A stretch of 51,275 nucleotides of DNA from an uncultured Hyphomicrobiales bacterium. Its GTDB lineage: Bacteria; Pseudomonadota; Alphaproteobacteria; Rhizobiales; Aestuariivirgaceae. Both the position numbers and the translations under genes were made by a program. A model generated the notes under the pieces. That model was given only the letters and a program-made list of their open reading frames with translations, was not told where the DNA came from and searched no databases. Positions 22,388-34,673 of this stretch are shown piece by piece (positions within the stretch are counted from its first letter, which is position 1; every line of letters starts with the position of its first letter). The DNA lies in the NCBI GenBank assembly GCA_903951595.1, contig CAJBCQ010000085.1, forward strand, positions 1 through 51,275, in the 5' to 3' direction.

Positions 22388-22672
22388 TCAGTGTGTCGGT
22401 TTCTTGAATTGGGCAAGCTGTTCAGGCGTGGCGTCGGGCTGGTGCTGGGCCTTCCATTCCTCATAAGCCATGCCATAGACGATCTCGCGCGCTTGGCCGC
22501 GCGTCACATCAAGCCCCTCGGCTTTGGCGGCCTCCTCATACCAGTTGGAAAGGCAATTGCGACAGAAGCCCGCCAGATTCATGAGGTCGATATTCTGCAC
22601 ATCTGAACGCGCCCGCAAATGCGCCATCAGGCGGCGCAACACGGCGGCTTCGATTTTGTCGGTGTCACTCAT
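22388..22672 (-). CDS. DUF1244 family protein
   Basis: 94 aa. The motif [14 protein letters not shown] is the DUF1244 hallmark. It overlaps the upstream gene's stop by ATGA. Confidence 0.7.
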
Positions 22673-23454
22673 GCGGCAATCTCCTTCAATACATGGGGCA
22701 GAATGCGCGAAAGCCGCTCAGCCCACGCAAGCTGGCCTGCCGCATCGGCAATCAGATCTTGCCGGATCTCGATGAGCGCATGTGCAAGCCCGCGCTGGGT
22801 GCCATGCGCGTTCATGCTGTCGCCCGCAAGCCCCCCGGCATAAGGCTCATTATCACCGACAACGAGGTCTTTTTCAGCCTCAAGTGCTGCCATCAGCGGG
22901 CGGGCAAAGCGATCATCCCCATCCCACAACACACCTGCATGCCAAGGCCGGGCAACCCCCTTCCAGAAGGGTGTGAAACTGTGGATGGAGCACAAGACAG
23001 GCCGCACCCCCAACCGCTCGGCTTCATCAATGAGACCGGAAAGGGCGCGGTGATAAGGGGTGTAATAGGTGTCAATCCGGTGCTGGCGCTCGGCCATCCC
23101 CATTCCCACATTCCCCGGCACCACCGCCCCATCCGATAGCTGCATGATGAGGGTGGGGTCCTGAATGCCCCGATTTGGGTCAATCAGCAAGCGGGAAAAC
23201 CCGGCAAAGATGCCCGCAACCCCCAGAAACCCACATAAGGCGCGCAACACCCCCTCCACCCCGATATCATAAGCGATATGGCGGCAAAGCTCGGCTTGCG
23301 GCAGGCCCAGCGTGCCATAAGCCTGCGGCAAGGCATTGCGCGCATGGTCAGCCACCAGGATCAACCCGCGGCTCAAGGCACCGGGCACAATCTCGAAAGC
23401 CGGGAATGCCGCAATGGCGGTTTGCGGTGCAAGGGATGGGCTGGTATTGGGCAT
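22669..23454 (-). CDS. N-formylglutamate amidohydrolase family protein (paralog 1)
   Basis: Start taken at MPNTSPSL. The motifs LVADHARNALP, RHIAYDIG, LIDPNRG and CSIHSFTP match FGase-family blocks. Confidence 0.7.
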   Translation of the reverse strand: MPNTSPSLAPQTAIAAFPAFEIVPGALSRGLILVADHARNALPQAYGTLGLPQAELCRHIAYDIGVEGVLRALCGFLGVAGIFAGFSRLLIDPNRGIQDPTLIMQLSDGAVVPGNVGMGMAERQHRIDTYYTPYHRALSGLIDEAERLGVRPVLCSIHSFTPFWKGVARPWHAGVLWDGDDRFARPLMAALEAEKDLVVGDNEPYAGGLAGDSMNAHGTQRGLAHALIEIRQDLIADAAGQLAWAERLSRILPHVLKEIAA

Positions 23455-23678
23455 GATCGGCAAACTATAATGGCCGTGTGATGCTGCGGCCAGCGCGCCC
23501 GCCCCGGCTTGGCGGTTTTCGCGGTGGATAACGGCAAATAAGCGGGGATGCCTTGCTTTGGCCGTTTTCAACAGCGGTTATTCGCCCCGCCCCCGACCGC
23601 ACCCAACAAAATGGGCGTGCATCGGATGGCGGGAATGCTACAAGGTGATTCGTGAGAGTTAGGGAGACCGAGCCCCCG

Positions 23679-26890: not shown

Positions 26891-27090
26891 GAAAACCTGT
26901 CCCGAAACGGATCCTAAGCTCAGGTTAGGAGCCAACCGCCTGAAGGATCAAGCAAATTCAAGCCCGGGCCACTGGGATTAACAAGGCAATTCCAAGTCAA
27001 GATTGTGGCCCAAGCAACTTATCGTCTGTTGGTTTAAGAAAATATATGTAATACTCCCAACCAATATACTTAATTTTTTTGGAGTTCATC

Positions 27091-28269
27091 ATGAAGTCGT
27101 CCATCATCAAATCGCTGCTTCTGGGCACCGCGCTCTCCTGCGCCTCGGTCTCCTTCGCCATGGCTGAAGACTATAACTGGTCGGGCATTTTCCTCGGCGG
27201 CACGGTGGGTGCGACCGACAGCAAGTCGGACTCCACGGTGGATTACGGCAGCGTGAGCACCGAAGATATCGACGGCAACTACACTGTGGGCTGGGAAAAC
27301 GGTTTCTTCACCGGCGGCATCTATGATGACCTCAACGATTTGGACATCGACGGCGAGATTACCGACGGTGGGCCTGTTGGTGTAATTGATACGGACCTAA
27401 CGAACCAGGATGCGCTCGATCTCTTTGACGACGTGGGCGGGCAGGCTCAACTCGAAGCTTGGGTGGACGCTTTCAATTCTTCGGAAATGAACTGGAGTGC
27501 TACTGCCATCCTCGGTGGCCAGATCGCTTCTGGCAGCTTGGTGTTCGGTGCCGAATTGCGCGGCACCTTCGGCGATTTCGACACCTCCACTTCCGATGAG
27601 TGGCTTGACACGGCACGAGGCGAGGACTTCGCCACCTGCACTGTGACCGAAGATACGTGCGACATTACCTACACGGCTGTCGGCACCAATTCGGGCGGCC
27701 ATATCAATTGGGCCGACCGCAGCACGGGCGTTGACACCGATTGGGATACCAATTTAGGTAGCATCAGTGCCGGTTATGAAGCAGAATATGCTCAGATCAA
27801 CAACTTTGCCTTCGGTGCAAGCTATGACAGCGTGTTTAGCCCGGTAGCCAAGCTTGGTTTCGCGGTCGGTCGCGTACACCTGTTCGCCATGGGCGGCCCG
27901 AGCTGGTCCAAGGTCAAGGCAACCACCTCTGCAAGCGCGAACGAAGTTGCACGGGTTGACGTTTTTTATAACGAATCTGACGAAACGGGCGTAGATGATT
28001 TCACCGGCGAGGAAGCGGTCGGCGTAGAAAATGGTGCAGCGAGCTATGACTGGTCTGGCTCCAACACCGAAACGCTCGCCGGCTACTCCGTCGGCGGCGG
28101 TATGGAATGGGCAGCCACCGACAACCTGATCCTGCGTGCCGAAGGCCTCTACACCGACCTCGGCAGTATCGATGTGACCGGCGTTTCTGATGAAACAGCC
28201 GCCACCTACACCGTGACCCAGGAACTGAACAGCGTGTCGGGTTCTGTCGGCATGCTCGTCAAGTTCTAA
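27091..28269 (+). CDS. Outer-membrane beta-barrel protein (Omp25/Omp31-porin-like ends) with expanded acidic loops
   Basis: GGAG RBS 7 nt before the ATG at 27091, behind an AT-rich upstream region. The signal peptide ends SFAMA. The first strand is a YNWSGIFLGG type. The C-terminus, LNSVSGSVGMLVKF, ends in Phe. The central about 200 aa are very D/E/T/G-rich (DIDGN, DLDIDGEITDGG). Confidence 0.75.
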   Translation: MKSSIIKSLLLGTALSCASVSFAMAEDYNWSGIFLGGTVGATDSKSDSTVDYGSVSTEDIDGNYTVGWENGFFTGGIYDDLNDLDIDGEITDGGPVGVIDTDLTNQDALDLFDDVGGQAQLEAWVDAFNSSEMNWSATAILGGQIASGSLVFGAELRGTFGDFDTSTSDEWLDTARGEDFATCTVTEDTCDITYTAVGTNSGGHINWADRSTGVDTDWDTNLGSISAGYEAEYAQINNFAFGASYDSVFSPVAKLGFAVGRVHLFAMGGPSWSKVKATTSASANEVARVDVFYNESDETGVDDFTGEEAVGVENGAASYDWSGSNTETLAGYSVGGGMEWAATDNLILRAEGLYTDLGSIDVTGVSDETAATYTVTQELNSVSGSVGMLVKF

Positions 28270-28293: not shown

Positions 28294-28320
28294 GGGCATC
28301 CCGCCGGGGTGCCCCTTTTT
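28294..28320 (+). terminator. Intrinsic terminator after the OMP gene
   Basis: GGGCATCCC-gcc-GGGGTGCCC (9 bp, one G:U) followed by C+TTTTT, 25 nt after the stop. Confidence 0.8.
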
Positions 28321-28347
28321 GTTGGATGACCTCTGAGGAGTTGATCC

Positions 28348-29292
28348 GTGTTGTCCCTGCTGCCGCAAAGGAATCTAGTACTAGTTGTCGATGAAGCCCG
28401 CTGTGATCCGGCTGACTTCATCGATATTGCAAACCGTATCCGCTCGCAGGCCGCCGATATCCGCGTACAGGTCTTGCAGCCCAAGGTCATCCACAGCATA
28501 GCCCGCGATACATGGGACCATCCGACATTGTTCCTATGCCTCGTCAACCTTCCCGATTTGCGGATCAAGCGCGGCAATCTATTGGTCACCCGCCCCATCC
28601 CCAAGCTACAACAGTCCGAGATGATGAAGCTGGCCCATGTTCCAACACCACATGCAGAGCGCTATCGTTTCGGAATGGTGTTTGACGAAAAGCTATGGGC
28701 AAGCCATGTGATCCTCAAGCCGGAAGATCTTACACTCACATCGCATGGCACAGGCCTTGAAATCATCGCGACCAAAATACTTTCGAGAAAATGCGAACGA
28801 GACTTCCCACCCGATCATTTTGCGCGCAGCCACAATATGCTGGTGCAGAATTTCATTGATACGGGCCGCCAGCCAGTGCGTTACCGCGCCATGACTTTTC
28901 TAGGCGAAGTTCTCTATATCAGCAAAATTACCTACGCACCGCAAAAGGCAGCTGACGCAACCGAAATACCAGCAGATTTTCACAGCAAATCCTCCGCAAT
29001 CCGGCGAGAGTTTCAGTACTATCCGCATGTCTATGATTTTGCGAAAAAGGTGGCGGCCGCCTTTCGGCAAAGCCCCCTGCTTGGCTGCGATATTCTCGAA
29101 GAGCATACCACTGGAAATCTTTATGCCATCGAAGTGAATGCGGGTGGCAATGTCTGGCACTTCTCCTCACCCTACCTTGCCAAGCACCGCCAAGAACACC
29201 CGGAAGATAACGTCCCGCGTTTGACCCAATACAACGCATTCGACACTGCCGCCAAGGCGCTCATCAACGCCACACGCCGTCAGGCCATTTGA
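28348..29292 (+). CDS. RimK-type ATP-grasp ligase-like protein, paralog A
   Basis: The GTG start is preceded by GAGGAG at a 7-nt spacing. Blocks align by eye with E. coli RimK:
- KLQQSEMMKLAHVPTP aligns with DKLRSMQLLARQGIDLP.
- HVILKPEDLTLTSHGTGLEII aligns with PLVVKLVEGTQGIGVVL.
- MLVQNFIDTGRQPVRYRAMTFLGEV aligns with [24 protein letters not shown].
- ADFHSK aligns with GDFRSN.
- LLGCDILEEHTTGNLYAIEVNAGGN aligns with [23 protein letters not shown]. Confidence 0.75.
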   Translation: MLSLLPQRNLVLVVDEARCDPADFIDIANRIRSQAADIRVQVLQPKVIHSIARDTWDHPTLFLCLVNLPDLRIKRGNLLVTRPIPKLQQSEMMKLAHVPTPHAERYRFGMVFDEKLWASHVILKPEDLTLTSHGTGLEIIATKILSRKCERDFPPDHFARSHNMLVQNFIDTGRQPVRYRAMTFLGEVLYISKITYAPQKAADATEIPADFHSKSSAIRREFQYYPHVYDFAKKVAAAFRQSPLLGCDILEEHTTGNLYAIEVNAGGNVWHFSSPYLAKHRQEHPEDNVPRLTQYNAFDTAAKALINATRRQAI

Positions 29293-30234
29293 ATGTCACA
29301 CCTACTGCCGAAGAAAAATCTGGTCGTGATCGTGGACAGGTCGCGCTGCGATCCGGCTGATTTCGTAGACATCACGCGCCGAGCGCGGGCGCAAGCTCCC
29401 GACATCCGAGTGCAGCTTTTAATGCCCAGAACTTTGCACAAGCTTGCTCCGGTGACTTGGGATCATCCAACCCTTATCGTAAGCCAAGTGCGCTTGCAGA
29501 ATTTGCGCATCAAACGCGGCAAGCTCATGATGCCATCACCCATCCCAAAGCTGAAACAGGCCAAGATCATGCAAGCGGCTGGTGTCGCCACACCGCATGT
29601 GGTGCCATATCAATTTGGCATGACATTTGATGAATGCCTCTGGGGCAGCCACGTCATGCTCAAACCTGCAGATCTCGATTTTTCCTCCAAGGGAACGGGG
29701 CTTGAGGTCATCGCGGCGAAAGAACTGTCTGGAAAGCGCCAACAGGATTTCCCGCCCGATCATTTTGCAGGCTCGCACAAGATGCTGGCACAGAAATTCA
29801 TTGATTCAGGCCCCCAGCCGGTGCGTTACCGGGCCATGACCTTTATGGGCGAGGTTCTTTATGTAATGAAATCAACCTGTGCACCCATTAAATCACGGGA
29901 CGGCAAAATACCCGCAGACTTCCACAGCAAAGCCCCGGAACTGCGGCGCGAGTTTCTGCCTTTCCCCGAAGTGCGCGCCTTTGCCAGAAAAACAGCGGCA
30001 GCGTTCCCGAATTGGCCGCTGCTCGGCTGTGACATTCTGCAGGAGGCGGGAACGGGCGATCTTTATGCGCTGGAAGTAAATCCAGGCGGCAATGTCTGGC
30101 ACTTCTCCTCGCCCTACAACGCAAAGGATCGCGCGGCACACCCCGAATACAATGCCCTGTTCCAGAGCCAATATGGCGCCTTCGATGTCGCCGCCAAAGC
30201 CCTCATAAACGCCACACGGCGGCTGGCCGTCTGA
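29293..30234 (+). CDS. RimK-type ATP-grasp ligase-like protein, paralog B
   Basis: The ATG immediately follows the TGA of paralog A (tgaATG). It is about 55-65% identical to paralog A by eye along the full length and carries the same ATP-grasp blocks: MLKPADLDFSSKGTGLEVI, MLAQKFIDSGPQPVRYRAMTFMGEV, ADFHSK, LLGCDILQEAGTGDLYALEVNPGGN. Confidence 0.75.
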   Translation: MSHLLPKKNLVVIVDRSRCDPADFVDITRRARAQAPDIRVQLLMPRTLHKLAPVTWDHPTLIVSQVRLQNLRIKRGKLMMPSPIPKLKQAKIMQAAGVATPHVVPYQFGMTFDECLWGSHVMLKPADLDFSSKGTGLEVIAAKELSGKRQQDFPPDHFAGSHKMLAQKFIDSGPQPVRYRAMTFMGEVLYVMKSTCAPIKSRDGKIPADFHSKAPELRREFLPFPEVRAFARKTAAAFPNWPLLGCDILQEAGTGDLYALEVNPGGNVWHFSSPYNAKDRAAHPEYNALFQSQYGAFDVAAKALINATRRLAV

Positions 30235-30258
30235 ACTTAACTTGGGGCAAGAAGATGA

Positions 30259-30333
30259 TGGTGGGCGGTACAAGGTTCGAACTTGTGACCCTCACGATGT
30301 CAACGTGATGCTCTACCGCTGAGCTAACCGCCC
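30259..30333 (-). tRNA. tRNA-Val (anticodon GAC), CCA encoded
   Basis: The minus strand reads GGGCGGTTAGCTCAGCGGTAGAGCATCACGTTGACATCGTGAGGGTCACAAGTTCGAACCTTGTACCGCCCACCA. It folds by hand into a full cloverleaf: acceptor 7 bp, D stem GCTC/GAGC, anticodon stem TCACG/CGTGA with loop TTGACAT, and T arm ACAAG-TTCGAAC-CTTGT. Confidence 0.92.
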
Positions 30334-30899: not shown

Positions 30900-31796
30900 A
30901 TGAAGAGCCTGGCGCATGTTTTTGATCCGCCCTTCCGGCTATCCCGGCCGCAAGATGCGCTTGTGCCCGTGATCGTCAATTCCCCCCATTCAGGTGCTTT
31001 TTACCCCGAATCCTTCCTCAAATCTGCCCGCTTGGATGCGCTTTGCCTGCGTCGTTCGGAAGATGCCCATGTGGCAGAATTATTCGCCGCCGCCCCCAAC
31101 TTGGGCGCTCCCCTCCTGCAAGCCTGCTTTCCGCGAGCCTTTCTGGATGTGAACCGCGAGCCTTGGGAGCTGGATCCGGCCATGTTCGACGGCCCGCTTC
31201 CGCCTTTTGCCAATACCAGCTCCATCCGAGTGGCAGCCGGCCTTGGCACCATTCCGCGCGTGGTGAGCGAGTTTGTGGAAATTTACAAAGACAAACTCAG
31301 CCCGGCGGAAGCCGAAGCCCGCATTTTGCAGCTGTATTTCCCCTATCACGCCGCCCTGAGCCGTTTGGCGGATGATATGCTGGCCCATTTCGGCGCGGTT
31401 TTGCTGCTCGACTGCCATTCCATGCCCACCAGTGCCGCCGCCGGAGGGCTCACCCAAAGCCGCCATCGCCCCGATGTGGTGCTGGGCGATCGGCACGGCT
31501 CGGCCTGCTCGGCCATGATCACCGCAACCCTGGAAAGCCTATTTGCCGCACAAGGCCTGAAAGTGGCCCGCAACCGGCCCTATGCGGGTGGATTCATCAC
31601 CCAGACCCACGGCAAGCCCCGCCAAGGCCGCCACGCCATCCAAATTGAAATCTGTCGCAGCCTTTATATGGATGAAACAACCTTGGCTAAAACCGATGGC
31701 TTTGAACCCCTGCGCACGGCCCTGACCGTGGTGATGCAAGGAATGTTCACAAGCCTCGCCCCCCTGCTCATGCCCGCGGGCCTGGCTGCCGAGTAA
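30900..31796 (+). CDS. N-formylglutamate amidohydrolase family protein (paralog 2)
   Basis: The FGase blocks are VIVNSPHSGAFYP, RRSEDAHVAELF, FLDVNREPWELD and LLLDCHSMP. Confidence 0.8.
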   Translation: MKSLAHVFDPPFRLSRPQDALVPVIVNSPHSGAFYPESFLKSARLDALCLRRSEDAHVAELFAAAPNLGAPLLQACFPRAFLDVNREPWELDPAMFDGPLPPFANTSSIRVAAGLGTIPRVVSEFVEIYKDKLSPAEAEARILQLYFPYHAALSRLADDMLAHFGAVLLLDCHSMPTSAAAGGLTQSRHRPDVVLGDRHGSACSAMITATLESLFAAQGLKVARNRPYAGGFITQTHGKPRQGRHAIQIEICRSLYMDETTLAKTDGFEPLRTALTVVMQGMFTSLAPLLMPAGLAAE

Positions 31797-33016: not shown

Positions 33017-33952
33017 TCAGCCCGGCGGCGATAAGAAGCTTTCAAACGCCGCCCAAAACTGCGCCCGCACAGCATCTTTCTCCATCAGAATTTCATGGCG
33101 TGCGTCGCCGATGATGACCAGAGAAACATTCGCCACCCGGTTTGCGAAATCACGGCACGCCTCAGTCACCGTCACCCGCTCTCGGCCCGCCGCCACAATG
33201 AGCGTGGGCGCCAGAAGCCGCGTGCCAGGGGCAATCCGCGAAAGCTCACCCATCGAACGAAACGCACCATCAAGCCAGCCGATCGTGGCCCCACCAATGC
33301 TCAACCCAGGTGCAGCCTTCAAAACCCGTTGATCGCGATCGTAACGTAGCCGGTCGCCCGTCAGATCATTGCCAGCAAAATCATGCGGCCCCAAAGGTCG
33401 GGCAGGCCTTCCCGGTGCCAGAAAATCGCCAAAGCCAAACCGTGCCAATGAAATCGCCACAAACCGCGCCAAGGGCTTGGGCCATCGCCCAGTATTCACA
33501 TCGAGCATGGGCGAGGTGAGAACAGCGCGCGAAAACCAATTGCGCTTTTGCAAAGCGCGCAAGCCAACACAGCCGCCCATCGAATGGCCCAGCAGATAGA
33601 AAGGTGGCGGGCAATCAGGCAGCACATGGTGCTTCATGAAGCTTGCCAGATCATCATCGTAAAGCTTGAAGTCCGGCACATTGCTGCGAAACGCATCTTT
33701 CTGCAAACGTGGCGATCCGCCTTGCCCGCGGAAATCAAAACTGGCGGCGGAGAAACCCAGCGCATTCAGATCCCGAAACGTCTCGAAATACCGCTCCAGA
33801 AAATCGCCGCGTCCTTGTAGCACCACCACAGTGCCGCGCGCCTTGGCAATACGGCTCATGGCAAAGCGGAGCTTCAGGCCATCCGATGTCGGGAAATACC
33901 CCGACACGAGCCCTTGCGGCGGCTCGTTGCCGGGTGTGTGGATCAAACTCAT
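33017..33952 (-). CDS. Alpha/beta hydrolase (lysophospholipase/monoglyceride-lipase-like)
   Basis: Has the nucleophile elbow GHSMGG, VVLQGRGDFLERY, and a C-terminal DARHEI (catalytic His region). Confidence 0.8.
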   Translation of the reverse strand: MSLIHTPGNEPPQGLVSGYFPTSDGLKLRFAMSRIAKARGTVVVLQGRGDFLERYFETFRDLNALGFSAASFDFRGQGGSPRLQKDAFRSNVPDFKLYDDDLASFMKHHVLPDCPPPFYLLGHSMGGCVGLRALQKRNWFSRAVLTSPMLDVNTGRWPKPLARFVAISLARFGFGDFLAPGRPARPLGPHDFAGNDLTGDRLRYDRDQRVLKAAPGLSIGGATIGWLDGAFRSMGELSRIAPGTRLLAPTLIVAAGRERVTVTEACRDFANRVANVSLVIIGDARHEILMEKDAVRAQFWAAFESFLSPPG

Positions 33953-33991
33953 GGAAGCAAAGCTAGACCATTCCCAAGCCTGGCCGCAAGC

Positions 33992-34552
33992 TTAGGGTTG
34001 CTTGCGGACTTCCGTGATCTCACCGGTGGCCGCACTCACCTGAACCCGGTAGGTCTTACCGTCACGCAAGGCGGAAAAATCAAACAATTTGCCCGCACAA
34101 GTCACCGGTTTCACATTGCCAAAGCCATAGCCCGCCACGATTTCTTCCGCCTTGGCGCAACTTACAGGGCCGGAAGGGGCTGCCGTCGAGGCGGTTTGGG
34201 TCTTGGGGCCCGCGTTGGCCGATGCAGGCGGCGTCTCGCGCTGGCGCGGCAAGGGTGGTGGGGCATAGCCATAATCAGGCTGCCGCCAAGGCTCGCGATA
34301 GCCTCTCGGCGGTGGCGCATAGGCATAGGGATATTCTGGTTCCGCATAGCTGTAATAGGCTTGCGACGGGTAAAAATAGCCCGGCGGAGGCGGGGGTATG
34401 TAATAAACCGGCGGTGGCGCATAGCCATAAACACCCGGATCATAAGGCCCCGGCCCGATATAGCGATAATAGCCATATTCCTGCGCCTGCACGGCTGCAC
34501 CCGAAAGCGCCAACCCCGCCAAGGCCAAAAACACTCCGTTCCAAACGCGCAT
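33992..34552 (-). CDS. Exported Tyr/Pro-rich protein with C-terminal PepSY-like domain
   Basis: Start at MRVWNGVFLALAGLALSGAAVQA (signal peptide). About 90 aa of Y/P-rich repeats (YGYAPPP occurs three times) follow. The C-terminus is SCAKAEEIVAGYGFGNVKPVTCAGKLFDFSALRDGKTYRVQVSAATGEITEV. Confidence 0.6.
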   Translation of the reverse strand: MRVWNGVFLALAGLALSGAAVQAQEYGYYRYIGPGPYDPGVYGYAPPPVYYIPPPPPGYFYPSQAYYSYAEPEYPYAYAPPPRGYREPWRQPDYGYAPPPLPRQRETPPASANAGPKTQTASTAAPSGPVSCAKAEEIVAGYGFGNVKPVTCAGKLFDFSALRDGKTYRVQVSAATGEITEVRKQP

Positions 34553-34673
34553 CCCAAGCACTCCCCTTGAGCAAAACCCGGTCCATCCACCCCAGCATGT
34601 TCTGCTTACCGCAATCTGGCTGAACGGCAGGGCAAAACTGTGTTCACCGGGCGTTCATCAACAGGCCATCGGG

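Follow-up and report, generated by a model that had tools for sequence, protein, structure and literature searches.

The window analysed here is a stretch of 51,275 nucleotides (nt) from an uncultured Hyphomicrobiales bacterium (GenBank assembly GCA_903951595.1, contig CAJBCQ010000085.1). It contains two adjacent open reading frames (ORFs), A and B, which encode paralogous proteins predicted to be ATP-grasp enzymes of an unmodelled family. ORF A (28348-29292, + strand) begins with GTG and encodes 314 amino acids (aa); ORF B (29293-30234, +) begins with ATG and encodes 313 aa, and its product keeps all 17 family-invariant residues. Over their whole length the two proteins share 63% identity (BLASTP E 8e-150), which falls within the 55-65% estimated by eye in a preliminary description of this DNA. 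At 29290-29295 (+) the TGA that ends A is followed immediately, in the same frame, by the ATG that opens B; the abutment was noted then, and translational coupling is possible. Upstream is a gene for a beta-barrel outer membrane protein (OMP; 27079-28269, +). The OMP has 396 aa, a signal peptide, acidic loops and a C-terminal ...VKF; its only Pfam match is a weak one to Opacity-porin. Downstream is a convergent tRNA-Val(GAC) gene (30259-30333, -), the 3' end of which lies 24 nt past the stop codon of B, the distance originally reported. It forms the edge of a conserved backbone of tRNA-Val, response regulator, FGase and IMPase genes.

The pair is an orphan within its own neighbourhood. Its neighbours in the window encode the OMP, a lipoprotein, L36, a TPR protein, pyruvate kinase, tRNA-Val, a response regulator and an FGase. 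No carrier protein, peptidase, precursor peptide or transporter was found near the pair in the ORF listing, by tblastn or in a search of the window with a peptide hidden Markov model (HMM), in agreement with the preliminary description. There are no LysW-like carrier or Lys/Arg biosynthesis genes among the neighbours. Likewise, rpsF is absent from the neighbourhood of the pair, both in the window and in the syntenic region of L001, a 1.86 Mb contig of a close relative (loci fetched for comparison carry L numbers).

The OMP gene is followed by an intrinsic-terminator-like hairpin with a T-run (28294-28324, +); the hairpin itself (28294-28314) has a 9-bp stem with 7 GC pairs. The stem is preserved in L001 and in L125, another syntenic locus, and the loop is variable. 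A Shine-Dalgarno-like GAGGAG (28335-28340, +) can be read 7 nt before the GTG of ORF A. The terminator had been thought to insulate the pair. The hairpin is real and conserved, but insulation is doubtful: from the T-run to the start codon of A there are only about 27 nt in the window and in L001, Shine-Dalgarno sequence included, which leaves no space for a separate promoter. The hairpin thus probably attenuates transcription, and the OMP gene is probably the source of the pair's transcription. Read-through past the OMP terminator would give the pair a low level of transcription, and A and B may be translationally coupled. No terminator was detected between B and the convergent tRNA gene. L001 has a 21-nt spacer between A and B; the abutment of the two genes is not conserved.

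Fold, active site and family of A and B

The AlphaFold2 model, for which a 62-sequence family alignment was the input, has a pLDDT of 94.3 and a pTM of 0.91. Foldseek comparison with the PDB gave a probability of 1.0 and 238 matches at E<=0.001, and the best 50 listed are all ATP-grasp enzymes. The top matches are the kinase domains of Asp1/PPIP5K2/Vip1, D-Ala-D-Ala ligases (Ddl), LysX/ArgX, PsnB, RizA and ITPK1. Their scores are nearly equal (E 1e-10 to 1e-8, TM about 0.5, identity 11-16%). Six residues, K86, K124, R180, D248, E262 and N264, are invariant in the 62 family members; they are present in A and B and also in all 17 closest homologues. Q167 is nearly invariant among the 62. The family has 17 invariant residues in total, all of which are kept in both A and B; roles in binding ATP and Mg are assigned by motif position, not by residue-level superposition. 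Of the motifs aligned by hand in the preliminary description, LKP, VQxFI, the Arg-containing strand and E-V-N hold, whereas DF(H/R)S is not conserved across the family. On the evidence of the modelled fold, which bears out the original assignment, A and B are members of the ATP-grasp superfamily. Standard ATP-grasp chemistry converts a carboxylate to an acyl-phosphate, which is then attacked by an amine or hydroxyl. The predicted activity of A and B is ATP-dependent carboxylate ligation or phosphotransfer.

Neither Pfam nor NCBIfam has a model for the family to which the two proteins belong. Neither A nor B matches any Pfam model at E<=1. In NCBIfam there is a weak C-terminal match to NF038074 (STM4014), at 21 bits against a cutoff of 175; a PADLOC scan of both proteins gave nothing, and PHROGs gave one non-significant match (E 0.27). 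Neither phmmer nor the family profile found anything significant among PDB sequences, the best informative match being ITPK1 (E 0.06). Weak Pfam matches occur among the 62 members: R2K_3 in 13, ATP-grasp_3 in 7, ATPgrasp_ST (PF14397) in 7 and PF08443 in 4 (best E 3e-5). The PF14397 matches are all below the gathering score, and A and B have none. One distant representative, P0342, just passes PF08443 (23.9 bits against 21) and ATP-grasp_3 (PF02655), which fixes the clan but not the family. An apparent fusion to HisRS in P0065 was rejected as a chimeric gene call at a contig end. When 1.84 billion representative proteins were searched exhaustively by HMMER with the family profile, only 734 were retrieved at E<=1e-3. 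The family is therefore a small one with sharp limits, and it does not grade into RimK, GshB, LysX or Ddl. Clustering of the homologues at 90% identity gives 112 clusters, every one annotated as hypothetical except for one which carries a generic ATP-grasp label from JGI.

The pair had been called RimK-type. RimK, LysX and GshB (PF08443) share with A and B an ATP-grasp fold of three domains, the N-terminal one being a pre-ATP-grasp domain, as well as the ATP-binding Lys and D/E-x-N Mg-binding motifs; LysX/ArgX (5k2m) is among the best structural matches of the family. However, neither A nor B has a match to PF08443 at E<=1, the family profile retrieves no RimK or GshB, and its hhalign comparison with bona fide GshB gives a probability of 0.1, which indicates no relation. 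The matches by fold are spread over several ATP-grasp families, with 11-16% identity. Unlike RimK and LysX, the pair has no rpsF (S6) or LysW-like partner gene. The label is therefore unsupported. PF14397 and STM4014 show weak local similarity to the family around the Mg-binding C-terminal motif, and relatives of A and B are found near glycosyltransferases, but the scores are far below the cutoffs, as given above for NF038074. Both of these families are themselves uncharacterised; no mention of STM4014 was found in the literature that was searched.

Genomic contexts of the relatives

Neighbouring ORFs were clustered across all fetched loci. Outside the window's clade, the ATP-grasp gene most often directly adjoins a gene encoding a GT2-TPR glycosyltransferase (22 fetched loci, about 19 of them distinct), and in these cassettes it is present as a single copy. 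The best curated match of GT2-TPR is the peptide S-glycosyltransferase family SunS (TIGR04195; E 4e-18), at 65 bits against a cutoff of 350. The two proteins also occur as a natural fusion: P0317, a database protein of 685 aa, consists of GT2-TPR (residues 1-377) and ATP-grasp (residues 378-684). Other cassette genes encode PqqD-like proteins, GT4 (stp1-like), Mannosyl_trans3, Anp1 and GT10 glycosyltransferases, and proteins of about 290 aa of no recognised type. Three to five glycosyltransferase genes are found around the relatives, together with genes for GDP-sugar dehydratase/epimerase. The cassettes often include a small OMP_b-brl beta-barrel protein; c9 occurs in 7 loci and c52 in 3-4 loci. 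The c9 protein matches PF13505 (E 2e-17), and its gene is co-oriented with the PqqD and GT2 genes.

Immediately upstream of GT2-TPR there is a conserved ORF of 49-64 aa. Its product has the pattern ...(Y/F)xxPxxxS(F/L)xh(E/D)...G...AGN, followed by 0-7 variable residues. An HMM of this AGN peptide matches 22 loci (E 1e-18 to 1e-27) and nothing else in the fetched DNA. Examples are found at L024:2674-2829 (-), L039:6417-6584 and L016:6039-6242 (-), and the loci range from L007 to L043. In the databases the peptide forms 96 clusters, all unnamed. It has the look of a precursor from which a ribosomal peptide, glycosylated and so far undescribed, would be made. The GT2-TPR family comprises at least 1294 proteins at E<=1e-10, some of them from cultured Labrys species; it is far larger than the ATP-grasp family, and the ATP-grasp enzyme may therefore be an accessory in a subset of these systems only.

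There is a second and independent context, in L005 (Ca. Methylopumilus) and L032 (an alphaproteobacterial metagenome-assembled genome, MAG). Here the ATP-grasp genes neighbour a peptide beta-hydroxylase of the aKG-HExxH type (TIGR04267 scores of 88 and 99 bits, where the cutoff is 40), and no glycosyltransferases are found. L005 also has a 62-aa ORF with IGAKIGK repeats. Enzymes of the aKG-HExxH type are documented tailoring enzymes of RiPPs, peptides that are made on the ribosome and modified after translation (PMC12636437). The tandem ATP-grasp paralogs of this locus (L005:8959-12217; CP040985) are two in number; their N-terminal ~183 aa are identical and the remainder differs, a pattern that points to gene conversion or to a partial duplication of recent date. 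In a further locus (L002:6788-10978) two ATP-grasp paralogs flank genes for secreted proteins of the PEP-CTERM/VPLPA-CTERM type and of a Gly/Ala-rich type, and a ZnuA / DUF1007 / NicO metal-uptake cluster lies alongside.

None of this is present around A and B. A tblastn search of the window for GT2-TPR, other glycosyltransferases, PqqD and the hydroxylase was empty; the one exception is a generic similarity at the C-terminus of the OMP, which resembles c9 (E 4e-5). The best match of the AGN-peptide HMM in the window has E 2.9, and the intergenic space is too small for a peptide ORF. The preliminary description did not recognise the two genes as part of any module. It was right that the window has no visible substrate gene, but single-copy relatives of the pair are found in conserved cassettes that appear to modify peptides.

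Two groups of known systems resemble these cassettes. Graspetide ligases (MdnB/MdnC, PsnB) are also ATP-grasp enzymes and modify ribosomal peptides encoded adjacently. PsnB (7dro) is a significant structural match (E 2e-9), and the cassette relatives likewise have an adjacent conserved small peptide carrying conserved Ser/Thr and Asp/Glu. Two cooperating ATP-grasp ligases are typical of microviridin clusters, according to PMC12848669. In contrast, the window has no precursor peptide. A phylogenomic survey of graspetides (PMC8939145) makes no mention in its text of glycosyltransferase or HExxH; the SunS-like GT2-TPR, PqqD, glycosyltransferases and aKG-HExxH are absent from the associations which it lists. 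The likeness to glycocins lies in GT2-TPR, which has SunS as its best curated match and is encoded directly downstream of the small peptide ORF. However, GT2-TPR is far under the SunS cutoff, the peptides lack the Cys-rich glycocin pattern, and the window has none of the cassette. No description of a SunS/glycocin-type system with ATP-grasp, or of a system combining PqqD, ATP-grasp and a glycosyltransferase, was found in the literature that was searched; the glycocin papers retrieved treat ATP-grasp as a separate RiPP class. The cassette of AGN peptide, GT2-TPR, PqqD, glycosyltransferases and ATP-grasp is apparently undescribed.

Conservation and origin of the pair

Among GTDB species representatives the family is found at 28 loci, all of them in MAGs of Aestuariivirga, Hyphomicrobiales or unclassified Alphaproteobacteria; one of these MAGs holds at least 4 copies. 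A pair of family copies is present in Ca. Methylopumilus rimovensis. The arrangement seen in the window recurs in L001, L011, L125 and L012. The shared gene order is DUF1036, pyruvate kinase, TPR protein, L36, lipoprotein, OMP, A, B, tRNA-Val, response regulator, FGase and IMPase. The OMP gene precedes the pair in L001 and L125 as well, and tRNA-Val is at the same position in L001, L011 and L012. L011 and L125 come from one sample (ERZ28774741), and one contig ends, and the other begins, inside the second ATP-grasp copy. They are probably two contigs of one genome, broken within the pair probably because the paralogs confuse the assembler; the four syntenic loci are accordingly counted as at least three other genomes.

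Orthologues of A and B in the syntenic loci have 61-74% aa identity. The ratio of nonsynonymous to synonymous substitution rates (dN/dS) against the L001 orthologues is 0.14 for A and 0.14 for B, with dS above 1; between A and B it is 0.16. Such low ratios indicate that both genes are maintained by selection. Both evolve faster than the flanking housekeeping genes. Decaying duplicates are rejected by the dN/dS of ~0.14 and by the intact invariant residues.

In a neighbour-joining tree, the clade of A and B is sister to a cassette-embedded clade (L014, L016 and L017), and the duplication which produced A and B is older than the split of the window, L001 and L012 lineages. Independent duplications are seen in L005, L021 and L002; the cassette copies are single. 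It had been suggested that A and B form a hetero-oligomer. The independent duplications and the single cassette copies argue against an obligate one, and no such complex is implied. A comparison for substitutions fixed in only one of the two paralogs found none, and among close homologues it is ambiguous which are orthologous.

The preliminary description also took the DNA of the pair to be richer in AT than its flanks. The GC content is lower: ORF A has 0.531 (z -3.2), the lowest value among the long ORFs of the window, and ORF B has 0.560 (z -1.6), whereas the 30 other long ORFs have a mean of 0.591 +/- 0.019 (sd). However, the deviation is mild, and synonymous codon usage of the pair has a z of about -1. 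Distant loci were compared by anchoring on the flanking FGase gene; of 80 loci fetched, 40 extended far enough upstream. Of these 40, 27 retain the tRNA-Val gene and 15 the response regulator, and in none is the ATP-grasp pair or the OMP gene present at the backbone. The pair is therefore located at a synteny breakpoint beside tRNA-Val and is clade-specific, not part of a universally conserved core.

Placement at the 3' end of a tRNA gene had raised the idea of an island. Clade specificity and a slightly low GC content are in keeping with this, but there are no integrase or mobility genes near the pair among the window ORFs, no att-like direct repeat of the tRNA 3' end was found, and the arrangement is old. 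As it occurs in at least three other genomes, with orthologues 61-74% identical and dS above 1, any acquisition must be ancient. The island idea is weakly supported. A phage-type integrase (Arm-DNA-bind_3 + Phage_integrase) is found in two other loci, at L013:5476-6735 and L014:1101-2360, a few kb from an ATP-grasp/GT2-TPR/PqqD cassette; at least that type of cassette may be mobile.

Several features of the surrounding window were noted in passing. Synteny with L001 identifies two FGase-family (PF05013) genes in the window, at 22672-23571 (-) and 30900-31796 (+); the L001 counterparts of both are annotated as FGase, and the second is part of the widespread tRNA-Val / response regulator / FGase / IMPase block. 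An ORF at 33914-34567 (+) is a strong codon-usage outlier (z -4.25) and is probably spurious. It overlaps an ORF on the opposite strand (33992-34561, -) encoding a Pro/Tyr-rich protein with a signal peptide, which is called in L001 too.

Possible substrates and significance

The most probable interpretation, held with moderate confidence, is that A and B are functional ATP-grasp ligase paralogs of a peptide-modification family, which have become detached from their cassette, have been duplicated, and act on a target encoded elsewhere. What has been observed is the fold, the conserved catalytic residues, the purifying selection on both genes, the synteny and the occurrence of relatives in cassettes; ligase chemistry, a peptide substrate and expression by read-through are inferred. 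The family would comprise ATP-dependent ligases acting on a ribosomal peptide or protein. Such a substrate is favoured because the common feature of both contexts, that with GT2-TPR and that with aKG-HExxH, is a ribosomal peptide and not a sugar. In the clade of the window a ligase gene would have left its cassette and would then have been duplicated, before the window, L001 and L012 lineages split; the pair now lies directly downstream of an OMP gene. As no substrate is encoded in the window, the pair would have to work in trans, its target being a peptide or protein whose gene lies elsewhere. A target elsewhere was also the original proposal, and remains the most likely situation.

Several observations weigh against this interpretation. 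The window has no peptide, GT2-TPR, PqqD or hydroxylase gene. Among the matches listed, none to the peptide and none of the best 120 to GT2-TPR lies on the 1.86 Mb contig of the close relative, which is suggestive; the link to peptides may thus not extend to the clade of the window. No member of the family is characterised. Inositol-phosphate kinases are among the best structural matches, so that kinase chemistry is possible. The glycosyltransferase-rich cassette and the weak PF14397 matches also fit a glycan substrate. Some relatives (L015, L026, L033, L035 and the transporter-like context c25-c27) have no peptide-related neighbours. Finally, read-through expression draws on a scan of the + strand between 26900 and 30846 that found no promoter-like site; this is a weak negative, since the scan used an E. 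coli-type consensus and missed the OMP gene's own promoter too.

The alternative which survives best is that A and B are glycan amidoligases, attaching an amino acid or amine to a sugar carboxylate such as a uronic acid of lipopolysaccharide, capsule or envelope glycan; in this they would be like the sugar-transfer associated ATP-grasp enzymes (PF14397). Relatives lie amid 3-5 glycosyltransferases (GT2, GT4, GT10, Mannosyl_trans3, Anp1) with GDP-sugar dehydratase/epimerase, P0317 is fused to a GT2 domain, 7 of the 62 members match PF14397 weakly, and OMP genes recur beside the loci, the window pair itself following one. However, every PF14397 match is below threshold, the window has no glycosyltransferase, and the cassettes hold a conserved peptide and PqqD-like RiPP recognition element (RRE) proteins. 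The aKG-HExxH contexts of L005 and L032 are free of glycosyltransferases, and the peptide is the feature which the contexts share. A glycan substrate is considered unlikely.

It is quite improbable that the proteins are small-molecule enzymes unrelated to peptides, either kinases of the inositol-phosphate type or ligases of L-amino acids or metabolites. The kinase domains of PPIP5K/Asp1/Vip1 and ITPK1 are the top structural matches of the family (E about 1e-10), ITPK1 is also the best informative profile match in the PDB, and several family loci (c25-c27, ABC systems) have only transporter-like neighbours. The structural scores of kinases and ligases are practically equal, though (E 1e-10 to 1e-9, TM about 0.5, 11-16% identity, and 14-16% for the kinases). 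Family contexts point to peptides and glycosyltransferases, not inositol metabolism; the inositol-monophosphatase-family gene near the pair belongs to the ancient backbone and is present where the pair is not. Moreover, the GT2-TPR fusion and the co-occurrence of peptide and PqqD would be left unexplained.

A module directed at the OMP, in which the pair modifies the co-transcribed OMP or another envelope protein before export, is given very little credence. The order OMP, hairpin, 27 nt and pair is conserved, OMP_b-brl genes recur in the cassette loci (c9 and c52), and the L002 genes flank a secreted PEP-CTERM/VPLPA-CTERM protein. Against this, OMPs of the different contexts share only a generic C-terminal barrel signature, ATP-grasp enzymes are cytoplasmic and OMPs are exported unfolded through Sec, and neither an acidic tail at the C-terminus nor a conserved acceptor motif was found. 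Small OMP paralogs are numerous in Alphaproteobacteria, which makes chance adjacency plausible.

Just as doubtful is a recently acquired genomic island at tRNA-Val with accessory or selfish cargo: the 24 nt to the tRNA 3' end, the low GC content of A, the absence of the pair from 40 distant backbone loci and the integrase near a related cassette in L013 and L014 fit it, but not the lack of an integrase, tRNA-end repeat or mobility genes, the mild codon-usage deviation, or the age of the arrangement.

A more specific form of the peptide-ligase interpretation can be put forward, although it is decidedly unlikely. The two enzymes would form a self-contained module for protein modification, taken from a RiPP-like glycopeptide cassette and now directed at a protein encoded in the genome, the obvious candidates being the co-transcribed OMP or another envelope protein. 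If this were true, freshwater Alphaproteobacteria would carry out an ATP-dependent ligation, at a side chain or the C-terminus, of a kind not known before. For the family as a whole, the combination of ATP-grasp, SunS-like GT2-TPR, PqqD and AGN peptide would then amount to a new class of ribosomal glycopeptide.

ATP-grasp ligases are already known for the tails added by RimK, for LysW carrier chemistry and for graspetide macrocycles. The relatives of A and B disclose an apparently undescribed cassette in which a SunS-like glycosyltransferase, RRE proteins and a conserved AGN peptide come together; with it, the enzymology of a possible new peptide class could be tested directly. The pair in the window is itself of modest practical value. 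The duplicated pair, which has no cassette, may show how a biosynthetic ligase becomes detached from its cluster and is redeployed.

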